Of a DNA stretch of 64,000 nucleotides, positions 52,151 to 56,260 are shown one piece after another. Numbering within the stretch: position 1 is the first letter of the stretch; each line of letters starts with the position of its first letter. The position numbers were made by a program, and so were the translations under genes. This stretch comes from an uncultured Rivularia sp. (GTDB lineage: Bacteria; Cyanobacteriota; Cyanobacteriia; Cyanobacteriales; Nostocaceae): positions 96,001-160,000 of the forward strand of contig OY762007.1 in NCBI GenBank assembly GCA_963665115.1, read 5' to 3'. Below the pieces are notes generated by a model. That model had not been told where the DNA came from. It did no database searches and saw only the letters and a list, made by a program, of their open reading frames with translations.

Positions 52151-53464
52151 CTATGTCGTATACTCCGCATTAATTTTCACGTAATCGTAACTCAAGTCGC
52201 ATCCCCAAGCTTTACCTTCACCCGCGCCATTTCCAACGCTGACTTTAATAATTACAGGATTATCTACCCTTTGCATATTTACCGTATTCCTATCAACAGT
52301 TAAATCGTTACTATTATTAGTTGCGACAACATCTTTTGGCAAAGAAGATTCTGCTGCTGTTTGTTGCAAATATGCGCTCGCTGCTTTTCTATCAAACTCT
52401 AGGGGTTGTCCTTTTTCCATTAATAAAAAATCTCCCATCTGAATTCTCAAATCGCTTTGCTCGAAGGGTACTCCAGCACGCCCAGCAGCAGCAGCAATTC
52501 TTCCCCAGTTGGCATCTCTACCAAAGATTGCAGATTTAACTAATGAAGAGCCAGCAATGGTTTTGGCAATTTGTACTGCTGATTTTCCATTGACTGCACC
52601 GCTGACTTGCACTTCTATCAAACAAGTTGCACCTTCACCATCGCGAGCGATCGCCTTTGCTAAATGTTGACAAACTGCGGTTAACATTGCTTCCAATTTC
52701 TTGGCTTCGGCAGTCATTTCTGTAATCGCTGGGGTGCGGGATTGTCCGTTAGTTAAAGCAATTAAACTATCATTAGTACTGGTATCGCCATCAACCGTAA
52801 TTGCATTGAAACTCTTATCAGCAGCACGACTGACCATTTCTTGCCACAATTTAGGAGAAACCGCAGCATCGCAAGTCACAAACGCTAACATCGTCGCCAT
52901 ATTCGGATGAATCATTCCCGATCCTTTACTGATTCCGCCAATTCTTACAGGTCGATCGTGTATAGTTGTTTCTAGCGCAATCGATTTTTTCACCAAATCT
53001 GTAGTAATTATCGCCTTTGCTGCTGCGTCACTACCAGTTTCTGAAAGTGCTTCCACTAACTTAGGGATACCTGCTTTAAAAGCATCCATCTTCATTCTTT
53101 GTCCGATTACCCCAGTTGAAGCCAGCAACACCGACTTTGAAGAAATATTAAGTGTTTGCCCCAAGATCATCGCAGTTTCAAGAGCATCCAACCAACCTTG
53201 TTTACCAGTAGAAGCGTTAGCCTGTCCCGCATTGCAGAGAATAGCGCGGGCACTCTGCGACGATAATAACCGCTGACGACAATAGTCAACACAAGCCGCT
53301 GTTACCTGCGACATTGTAAACACACCTGCGGCGATCGCCTCTACATCTGAAACAATCAACGCTAAGTCTGGCGCACCCGAAGGCTTCAGCCCAGCAGCAA
53401 TTCCCCCTGCTTTATATCCTCTAGGTGCTGTAACACCACCATCTATTTCTTGCCAATCACTCAT
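52151..53464 (-). CDS. argJ: Ornithine acetyltransferase / N-acetylglutamate synthase ArgJ
   Basis: [36 protein letters not shown] and [10 protein letters not shown] motifs. Confidence 0.95.
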
Positions 53465-53920
53465 TTCTCTTCCCCTGCTTTTGCTTCTCTGCAAGAGGGG
53501 ATTATATCAATTATTAGTTAACGCGGGCAGGATAACTTATTAGTTATTAATAGGAATTGGGGATTGGGCATGGGGCATTGGGGATTGGGGATTGGGAATT
53601 GGTAAAGTTACTTCCTGCCTAGTAAAAGATTACTTATAATAAAACCGCTCAGACAAGGCAGTGCGTTGCGGAGGTTCCCTCCGTTGTCGCAACTGCCGCG
53701 CAGAGAAACGCGAAGGTAGTAGGAGTTGTTAGCTCAAAATACTGCTTATGCTCCAAGGATAAAGATTATGCAAGCAGCTTGAAAACCCTATTTTTGAAAT
53801 ATCAAGACTTTACAAAGTAGTTTCAGCAATCAATTCAGATCAAGTGTAAATTCAAAATATCAGTTTCAACACCTATACCCAATCCTGAATGCCCAATGCC
53901 CTAACACCGTATAAATACCC

Positions 53921-53973
53921 AAAAAAAAAGAGAGCTACTTGGCAGCTCTCCGGATCATCAGGGTGCATCTACT
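53921..53973 (-). ncRNA. Predicted ~53-nt sRNA, array copy 1
   Basis: AGUAGAUGCACCCUGAUGAUCCG + hairpin GAGAGCUGC-CAA-GUAGCUCUC + U-tract; TGnTATACT upstream. Confidence 0.7.
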
Positions 53974-53997
53974 TAACATAGTATATCACTATTTGTC

Positions 53998-54015
53998 GAG
54001 GGGGCTTTACCCCTC
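53998..54015 (-). promoter_or_regulatory. HetR-type inverted repeat GGGG-N5-CCCC, copy 1
   Basis: GAGGGGTAAAGCCCCCTC on the minus strand, centred 34 nt upstream of the predicted TSS. Confidence 0.6.
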
Positions 54016-54093
54016 AGTTAATTTTGGTTTAAATTTTGGTAAAGAAATTATCTTTAACTTCACAGTATTTTTATTTAGAATTGGAATAAACAT

Positions 54094-54146
54094 AAAAAAA
54101 AGAGAGCCACTTGGGTAGCTCTCCGGATCATCAGGGTGCATCTACT
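54094..54146 (-). ncRNA. Predicted sRNA, array copy 2
   Basis: Same seed; hairpin GAGAGCUAC-CCAA-GUGGCUCUC + U-tract; TGnTATACT. Confidence 0.7.
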
Positions 54147-54171
54147 TAACATAGTATATCACTATAGTCCC

Positions 54172-54188
54172 AGGGGGTGAGACCCCCT
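54172..54188 (-). promoter_or_regulatory. HetR-type inverted repeat, copy 2
   Basis: AGGGGG-TGAGA-CCCCCT, centred at -34. Confidence 0.6.
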
Positions 54189-54243
54189 TACGTAGATTTG
54201 GATAAAAATTTTGCGAAGAAGTCGCAGTTAAATATGAAAAAAC

Positions 54244-54294
54244 AAAAAAGAGAGCTATTTAAACTAGCTCTCCAAACATCAGGGTGCATCTGAT
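54244..54294 (-). ncRNA. Predicted sRNA, array copy 3 (most diverged)
   Basis: AUCAGAUGCACCCUGAUGUUUG + GAGAGCUA-loop-UAGCUCUC + U-tract; TGnTAAAAT. Confidence 0.65.
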
Positions 54295-54320
54295 TATCAC
54301 ATTTTACCATTTATGGCATG

Positions 54321-54335
54321 AGGGATTATACCCCT
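54321..54335 (-). promoter_or_regulatory. HetR-type inverted repeat, copy 3
   Basis: AGGGA-TTATA-CCCCT, centred at -34. Confidence 0.5.
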
Positions 54336-54466
54336 TGGTATTTTTTTTTGTAAAAAATTCTTTCAAAGTATTATACGAGTAATAAGAGTAGAGCTAATTT
54401 ATCGATCGATAATATCATTACGGCATATGCATAGCGGGATTATACGGATATTATCTAAATTTTCGC

Positions 54467-54521
54467 AAAAAAAAACGGAGAGCTACTTGGCAGCTCTCCA
54501 GATCATCAGGGTGCATCTACT
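54467..54521 (-). ncRNA. Predicted sRNA, array copy 4
   Basis: Same seed; GGAGAGCUGC-CAA-GUAGCUCUCC + U9; TGnTATATT. Confidence 0.7.
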
Positions 54522-54546
54522 TAACATAATATAGCATCTTAGATAC

Positions 54547-54563
54547 GAGGGGTGACACCCCCT
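54547..54563 (-). promoter_or_regulatory. HetR-type inverted repeat, copy 4
   Basis: GAGGGG-TGACA-CCCCCT, centred at -34. Confidence 0.6.
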
Positions 54564-54774: not shown

Positions 54775-56260
54775 CTATTCAACCAAAGCTTTAAGTTTTT
54801 TGTCTACCAGTTGATTGGTTAACTTTGGATCGGCACGTTTTCCAGTTTTCTTGAGAAACCTGTCCGACGAAAAACCCTTTAACGTTGGTTTTGCCGCTGC
54901 GATATTTCTCGACTTCTTTAGGATTACCAGCTATTGCTTCATCGATCAGAGGTTCGAGTACTGCTGGATCTGTAATTAATTTTTCGCCAGCAAAAACATC
55001 TTTGGGAGAATCACCATTAAGTAAATCTGGTAATTTCTCTTTGGCTTTGGCATTACTAATCTCACCTTTATCAATTAGCTTAACCACCTCAGCTAAGTTG
55101 CTTGGGGTTAAATTAATTTCAGAAATATTCAGTTTTTCCTTGTTGAGATGAGCCGCAATATCCCCCATAATCCAGTTTGCGGCAGTTTTGGAATTTGCTC
55201 CTTTTTCTACAGCAGCTTCAAAATACTCGGCTGTTGCCTTCTCCTCGGTTAAAACTCGCGCATCGTATGCAGAAAGTCCCAACTCGGTTTCATAATAATG
55301 GCGTTTTTTCGCAGGTAAGTCTGGTAATTCGCTTTCCCAACTCTTTAATTGTGCGTCAGTTACCTCGATTGGAGCCAAATCGGGTTCGGGAAAATAACGG
55401 TAATCTGAAGAACCTTCCTTAACTCGCATACTAATAGTGCGTTGGGAACCTTCTTCCCAAAGACGAGTTTCTTGAATGATTTTTTCGCCAGATTCATTCG
55501 CTTCAATTTGACGTTCAATTTCGTATTCAATCGCTTTTTGAATCGCGCTGAACGAGTTCATATTCTTAATTTCAACTTTTGTGCCAAATTCCTCTTGTCC
55601 GACGGGACGAACGGAAATATTTACATCGCAACGTAGCGAACCTTCCTGCATATTTCCGTCGCTGACACCGAGATAGCGGACAATTCGGCGTAATTCTTGA
55701 GCATATTCGGCGGCTTCTTGCCCGGAGCGGATATCGGGTTCCGAAACGATTTCGATTAACGGGATACCGGCTCTGTTGTAATCTACCAAAGAATAGCTCG
55801 AACCAGAAAGGCGATCGCTACCGGCGTGAACTAGTTTTCCTGCATCTTCTTCCATGTGCAAGCGAGTAATACCAATCTTTTTACGAGTGGCGTTACCATC
55901 TTTGTCAACTAACTCAATTTCAATATGCCCGTGTTCGGCGATGGGTAAATCGAACTGAGAAATTTGGTAATTTTTGGGTAAATCGGGATAAAAATACTGT
56001 TTGCGGTCAAATTTGCTATATCTAGCGATTTGACAATTGAGAGCTAAACCTGCTTTTACGGCGTATTCTAATACTTTTTCATTGAGTACCGGCAATACTC
56101 CAGGTAAACCCATACAAATTGGATCGATGTTAGTATTGGGTTCAGCACCGAATTCTGTAGAGCTATCAGAGAAAATCTTAGTTTTAGTAGCGAGTTGACA
56201 ATGGGTTTCCAGACCAATTATCGCTTCGTAATCAGTTTTTACAGTTGTAGCAACAGTCAT
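54775..56260 (-). CDS. gatB: Asp/Glu-tRNA amidotransferase subunit B (+1 frameshift near 54857)
   Basis: IGLETHCQL, FDRKQYFYPDLPK, HMEEDAGK, YRYFPEPDL; removing one T restores GQVLKKTGKRADPKLTN...*. Confidence 0.95.

Follow-up and report, generated by a model that had tools for sequence, protein, structure and literature searches.

The window, meaning the whole 64,000-nucleotide stretch of DNA that was analysed, contains between gatB and argJ four repeats on the minus strand, spaced 173, 148 and 227 nt apart, that are predicted to be small RNA (sRNA) genes resembling NsiR1 (Table 1). Each repeat comprises, in minus-strand order: an A/T tract; a G/C palindrome (the box); a -10 hexamer with a TG extension; an RNA 5' end free of pairing, which reads AGUAGAUGCACCCUGAU except in copy 3, where it begins AUCAGAUG; a hairpin of 9-11 pairs; and a U-run. 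The possible second promoter of copy 3 has a -35 hexamer that reaches 5/6 matches in only 9 of 20 loci from the genus. At the 3' end of gatB (window 54840-54870) the last codons seem out of frame past a T run, and the GatB family match ends at residue 469-475 of 489, probably owing to a one-base assembly error or a frameshift. The gap between argJ and the array holds short tandem 7-mer repeats in an inverted arrangement, together with one variant form of a GC-rich repeat that is dispersed in the genome (window 53553-53609, 53872-53908 and 53660-53700 for these features).

Table 1. Features of the gatB-argJ interval, in window coordinates
Feature	Position	Strand	Remark
gatB	54791..56260	-	upstream neighbour; named by NCBIfam
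argJ	52151..53464	-	downstream neighbour; named by NCBIfam
Box 1, GGGG-N5-CCCC palindrome, predicted HetR operator	54001..54013	.	centre 54007
Extended -10, copy 1 (TG-n-TATACT)	53980..53988	-	conserved columns in orthologues
Predicted sRNA copy 1, 52 nt: unpaired NsiR1-type 5' end, GC hairpin, U-run	53922..53973	-	RF02399 33.1 bits
Box 2, GGGGG-N5-CCCCC palindrome	54173..54187	.	centre 54180
Extended -10, copy 2 (TG-n-TATACT)	54153..54161	-	sequence
Predicted sRNA copy 2, 53 nt	54094..54146	-	RF02399 33.9 bits
Box 3, imperfect, sense GGGG-TATAA-TCCC	54322..54334	.	centre 54328; contains TATAAT hexamer
Extended -10, copy 3 (TG-n-TAAAAT)	54301..54309	-	read from sequence
Predicted sRNA copy 3, divergent 5' end (AUCAGAUG)	54242..54294	-	RF02399 18.1 bits
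Possible second sigma70 promoter, copy 3 (TTTACA-18-TATAAT)	54325..54354	-	11/12 match; -10 inside box 3
Box 4, GGGG-N5-CCCC palindrome	54549..54561	.	centre 54555; genome's best score against family profile
Extended -10, copy 4 (TG-n-TATATT)	54528..54536	-	sequence
Predicted sRNA copy 4, 52 nt	54470..54521	-	RF02399 37.2 bits

The initial annotation described a GGG-N5-CCC palindrome with conserved arms and differing centres at -34 in all four promoters, over the -35 position of extended -10 promoters. Its account of the places is borne out: in all four copies, as read from the sequence, the centre of the box lies over the -35 position, at a distance of 21 nt from the -10 hexamer and 37 nt from the A with which AGATG opens. 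The figure of -34 assumes the predicted +1, 6 nt past the -10 hexamer, and would become -35 by the NsiR1 start mapped in PCC 7120, which falls on the next G (PMC4734099, Table S3). The GGG-N5-CCC core itself is found in copies 1, 2 and 4 (3/4); copy 3, with the core GGG-TATAA-TCC, departs from it because a T replaces the inner C of one arm, and the same deviation recurs in all 20 genus loci, which were retrieved by BLAST and not by the box pattern. At these loci the core is kept in 55 of the 59 copies of types 1, 2 and 4, with variation in the centre and flanks. The centres nevertheless differ less freely than had been supposed: among 97 orthologous boxes, 43 of them outside the genus, T occupies position -2 in 84-89% and A position +2 in 86-87%, the arm columns of this set being circular because its loci were largely retrieved by the box pattern.

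The bare motif is common in the 8.69-Mb genome (552 GGG-N5-CCC and 73 GGGG-N5-CCCC, many of them within a dispersed repeat), and the four boxes are not four independent events because they are tandem duplicates. Counted with strand orientation, the genome has 1104 GGG-N5-CCC sites, and only 3 of them, the boxes of copies 1, 2 and 4, have an extended -10 at this spacing. The frequency of GGGG-N5-CCCC in the dispersed repeat, together with the flagging of all four boxes as terminator-like on the plus strand, would fit a palindrome that acts as a short RNA hairpin, such as a plus-strand terminator, or that was carried along as a relic when the repeat was duplicated. This we regard as very unlikely: the stems have just 5-6 pairs, the deviant boxes inspected lose one arm with no compensating change in the other, and a hairpin would need neither the fixed spacing to a minus-strand -10 nor the tracking of hetR described below.

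The predicted RNAs share with NsiR1 (Rfam RF02399, Nostoc sp. PCC 7120) the 5' end GUAGAUGCACCCUGAU, a length of 50-60 nt, a terminator hairpin and an organization in tandem copies that each have their own promoter. They contain the conserved NsiR1 5' sequence, divergent in copy 3, and all four score below the RF02399 gathering cut-off of 39 bits; they differ from NsiR1 in their hairpin (GGAGAG arm), in their location between gatB and argJ, which is not the place of the tandem array upstream of hetF, and in promoters that combine an extended sigma70-type -10 with the GGG-N5-CCC box, the DIF1 element (TCCGGA) being absent from -35. The contrast with DIF1 promoters to which the initial annotation had pointed is upheld within this same genome, which carries elsewhere 12 true NsiR1 copies with TCCGGA promoters and scores of 51.5-69.4 bits, 11 of them upstream of hetF (array at C1:7.50 Mb) and one as a single copy. 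Because the 5' end is the same and the hairpin, locus and promoter are other, the array is, judged from its sequence, a separate sister branch of NsiR1; score, promoter and locus all place it outside RF02399. The single NsiR1 copy away from hetF (L134:1542-1592; G000:C1:5759087), with its TCCGGA promoter, has counterparts in 5/5 family genomes among the matches listed. Copies 1 and 2 do contain a TCCGGA, but within the transcribed part (window 53949-53954 and 54122-54127) and not at their -35.

HetZ is a sigma factor for TCCGGA, a -35 element (Hu et al. 2026, PMC13342950), and sigma-HetZ/DIF1 promoters, whose TCCGGA is missing from that place in the window promoters, drive other copies of the same RNA core, both in the heterocyst-forming family and beyond it. 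In the class as a whole, the core is accompanied almost wholly by these two promoter types (among the matches listed, 150 of 701). Among hetR-positive genomes that lie beyond the heterocyst-forming family (for example G454:C7, G446, G371), copies of the NsiR1 core with TCCGGA or TCCTGA promoters are common and in many cases dispersed, and the exact NsiR1 core occurs in 131/133 hetR-positive genomes; core matches in G432, G536 and G543, which have neither promoter nor hairpin, were treated as chance. Contigs from three metatranscriptome runs (two samples) span the array but are uninformative on start, strand and level because argJ and gatB are covered too; one contig of 54 nt has its end at the predicted +1 and was rejected as an RNA 5' end, as it overlaps a further contig. 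The literature on NsiR1, HetR, sRNAs, patU and argJ, surveyed in part, yielded no description of the sister branch or its box. NsiR1 homologues beyond heterocystous genomes were already flagged in 2016, since 27 of the 38 counted lay in heterocystous genomes (PMC4734099, Table S3).

Comparison with known sites, together with the distribution described below, makes the palindrome a likely HetR site. Binding of HetR in EMSA and in the structure requires a GGG-N5-CCC core (PMC4649674; the EMSA mutants carried paired changes only), which boxes 1, 2 and 4 have in common with the hetP and hetZ sites; the flanks match the hetP inverted repeat, and the right arm of the orthologue consensus, ACCCCTC, equals the right arm of the hetP site (inverted repeat and consensus in PMC4192349). 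The HetR of this genome retains the DNA-contact residues R62, H69, E71, K73, R74 and K76. The outer G at position 8 from the centre, which in our own mapping corresponds to the Arg62-contacted g3, is present in one arm of copies 1, 3 and 4 and in neither arm of copy 2; outside the genus, C stands at +8 in 91% of 43 boxes and G at -8 in 21%. In contrast to the hetZ site, centred at -45, the window boxes are centred at -34/-35 over the -35 region, and they differ from both the hetP and hetZ sites in preceding a predicted sRNA and in being conserved across lineages outside the heterocyst-forming family.

Direct binding by HetR, as initially proposed, is thus favoured by the core match and by the distribution of hetR and hetZ (below), but not by the published HetR ChIP data from PCC 7120, the first of two parts of which (0.14-5.35 Mb) lists no peak at 2.428-2.691 Mb; the orthologous position is inferred to lie at about 2.4797 Mb, between thrC and argJ. 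That study missed hetZ as well. Close relatives of PCC 7120 have a degenerate box, GGG-N5-CTC, in a comparison that returned 19 stretches, PCC 7120 itself not among them. Table S3 of PMC4734099 has no row for the orthologue, as expected because its pipeline dropped starts <200 nt from a same-strand gene and a close relative shows a spacing of about 196 nt; PMC10287535 lists no transcription unit between thrC and argJ of PCC 7120.

Genomes of the class were surveyed in one draw of 261, of which 133 contain hetR as recognized by PF03574. The box and sRNA core occur together in 119/261 genomes, comprising 118 of the 133 hetR-positive genomes and 1 of the 128 others (19/20 versus 1/18 by family), counts that do not amount to a statistical test because kin are not independent; a reversed-pattern control gave 0 matches in the 261 genomes. 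Outside the heterocyst-forming family, to which the window belongs, the layout is present in 113/122 hetR-positive genomes, against 5/11 within it, where several inspected boxes are degenerate. Heterocyst circuit would be too narrow a label, because the layout is best conserved outside that family.

Since RNA and box could be inherited together, the informative cases are genomes in which the elements are uncoupled, which were drawn from the same 261 genomes and 55 further ones. Nine genomes in which no hetR was found (G052, G333, G045, G311, G186, G190, G237, G331 and G229, in families f17, f10 and f8) keep the core and the extended -10 without GGG-N5-CCC. The hairpin of the branch is present in all eight that were fetched, in three the RNA is still situated between gatB and argJ, and a GatB tree (40 loci) parts G045 from G052 and G333 by a well-supported branch, giving at least two places. 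hetZ is absent as well from 6/6 of these genomes tested (a weak match only in G190). G170, G209 and G225, on the other hand, have hetR and the box but no hetZ and no TCCGGA copy. The box appears to track hetR, and TCCGGA to track hetZ, as the biochemistry predicts. TCCGGA-type copies were also seen in G321 and G350 beside a hetZ-related gene below the cut-off, with no hetR found. In the hetR-less copies of f8 (L109-L112, G229:C2:92304-92375) the sequence GTA-N8-AAC precedes the -10 by exactly 22 nt, the spacing of NtcA-activated promoters; a rewiring of these copies from HetR to NtcA is possible.

The same uncoupled genomes bear on whether the palindrome binds some other protein whose gene co-occurs with hetR, for example HetZ or a further regulator of filamentous cyanobacteria. 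Two drafts, G353 (99% complete, 80 contigs) and G044 (92%, 850 contigs), carry the box and hetZ with no hetR detectable by family or protein search, and at the inferred orthologue position in PCC 7120 a weak wild-type anti-HetZ peak (1.9-fold, 2479542-2479873) is found where the first part of the HetR table lists none. That peak, located by an alr2073 search, appears in the wild-type list only and is absent from the differential list, however, and the motif is the known HetR core, the box accompanies hetR without hetZ in G170, G209 and G225, and HetZ reads TCCGGA (PMC13342950); another protein as the ligand is accordingly improbable.

The initial annotation left open whether HetR would repress or activate; the geometry leans to repression, to which we give slightly better than even credence, picturing the box as an operator that would shut off the promoters of the NsiR1-sister sRNAs as HetR rises. 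Each repeat would be a stand-alone sRNA gene of the sister branch, with a promoter that would need no activator, having a TG-extended -10 without a proper -35 at 17 nt, so that a HetR dimer at -34/-35 would be expected to block the sigma-4 end of RNA polymerase. The RNA would be made in low-HetR cells, and the housekeeping-type promoter would be off in high-HetR cells, while sigma-HetZ would turn on the TCCGGA copies, which share that 5' end. HetR would be expected to bind less well at copy 3. The 5' end might then pair with the hetZ/patU junction and lower the anti-sigma factor PatU, the step that we hold least certain.

Several features of position argue for repression over activation. The activating hetZ box is centred at -45, whereas the window boxes lie on the -35 region itself. 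The TG-extended -10 is 95-97% conserved at key columns and survives the loss of hetR, and within box 3 lies a TATAAT that has a -35 at 18 nt on its upstream side. Sites that overlap the -35 usually repress, whereas PhoB-type activators replace the -35 element; HetR is said, by Videau et al. in 2014, to act both ways. Boxes of paralogues (n=20, with other hairpins) lie clearly at -26 to -32, off helical phase, in 13 cases (the scripted range was -24 to -37, and several other picks were wrong hexamers), and an activator would hardly tolerate such sliding. Orthologous boxes, by comparison, lie exactly at -34 in 88/99 cases and at -33 in 8, with 3 mis-picked.

This strict spacing of the orthologues suits an activator, and it is possible, if rather doubtful, that HetR activates these promoters through a box that replaces the missing -35 and recruits polymerase, the RNAs rising early in differentiating cells; with patU as target, this would form a coherent feed-forward loop that tips the balance between sigma-HetZ and its anti-sigma factor towards the former. 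The match to the HetR core and the distribution of hetR fit activation equally well. No good -35 stands at 16-18 nt (mean 1.5-2.7 of 6), and the embedded GTGACA was rejected as a working -35, being 19 nt from the -10 with a mean of 2.9/6 matches. The hetZ box of this genome is centred at -45, the Nodularia/Anabaena arrangement (PMC3610870), 11 bp further out than the window boxes, which places -34 one helical turn from an activating site; HetR activates PhetZ and PhetP through such sites (PMC13342950). The NtcA-like site, at an activating spacing in five hetR-less copies, looks as if one activator had been swapped for another. Against activation stand the paralogue boxes, which at -26 to -32 fall in the spacer and out of phase, the strength of the extended -10 and its persistence without hetR, and the lack of any replacement site in G052 and G333. 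Repression by HetR remains the preferred reading.

A candidate target of the sRNAs is patU, named here by position (PMC7377430), its ORF having no family match; PatU is described as a likely anti-sigma factor of HetZ (PMC13342950). Over its first 11 nt the sRNA is fully complementary to positions -12 to -2 relative to the ATG overlapping the stop codon of hetZ. In a genome-wide target scan with crude ORF starts, the patU start ranks 20th of 13,366 start regions, 19 scoring better. At the 23 of 31 hetZ loci that have the overlap, the duplex averages -16.1 kcal/mol against -12.8 kcal/mol under synonymous resampling (0/300 as low); the pairing is strong in 12/23 loci, whereas 6 do not exceed the mean of the resampled sequences, and a strict pattern for the site is found in only 15/261 genomes, in some of them away from hetZ. 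The 3' ends of hetZ (L145:2605-2633, L146-L174) contain an invariant TCC GGA (23/23) with TGAA 17 nt later, the published sigma-HetZ promoter consensus, which runs across both the patU start and the segment complementary to the sRNA; that segment doubles as a sigma-HetZ promoter spacer, which may account for its conservation. patU as a target is offered as a lead only, and the changed 5' end of copy 3 would pair less well with it. A full 16-nt complement of the sRNA core stands directly before an ATG in G074 (C1:3921673), G528 and G398, as another candidate target.

As far as sequence comparison can tell, the layout is real and conserved, with an imperfect copy 3, and it would work like a HetR-controlled promoter on an NsiR1-like RNA. 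A more speculative proposal, in which we place limited confidence, is that it represents an ancestral two-promoter switch of HetR-bearing cyanobacteria, in which one sRNA seed under HetR-operator and sigma-HetZ promoters would tune PatU. Were this so, there would be an RNA layer inside the core circuit of HetR, sigma-HetZ and PatU, older than heterocysts, and no known direct target of HetR would be conserved more widely than the box. Many filamentous cyanobacteria that form no heterocysts retain HetR, and its targets in them have been described as largely unknown (PMC4192349); if HetR binds the box, it would be a rare direct target common to species that never make nitrogen-fixing cells. With its fixed position in 113/122 genomes, the box offers a 60-bp test object for the role of HetR outside the heterocyst-forming family, and for how the position of a site decides between activation and repression by HetR. 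NsiR1 likely has an unnoticed sister with the same 5' end, and probes, antisense knock-downs and array deletions directed at it may be affected. Other boxes that score highly against the family profile, and are candidate HetR sites, lie at positions 1108449, 4548709, 6571930, 3778657, 7218137 and 5783551 of G000:C1.
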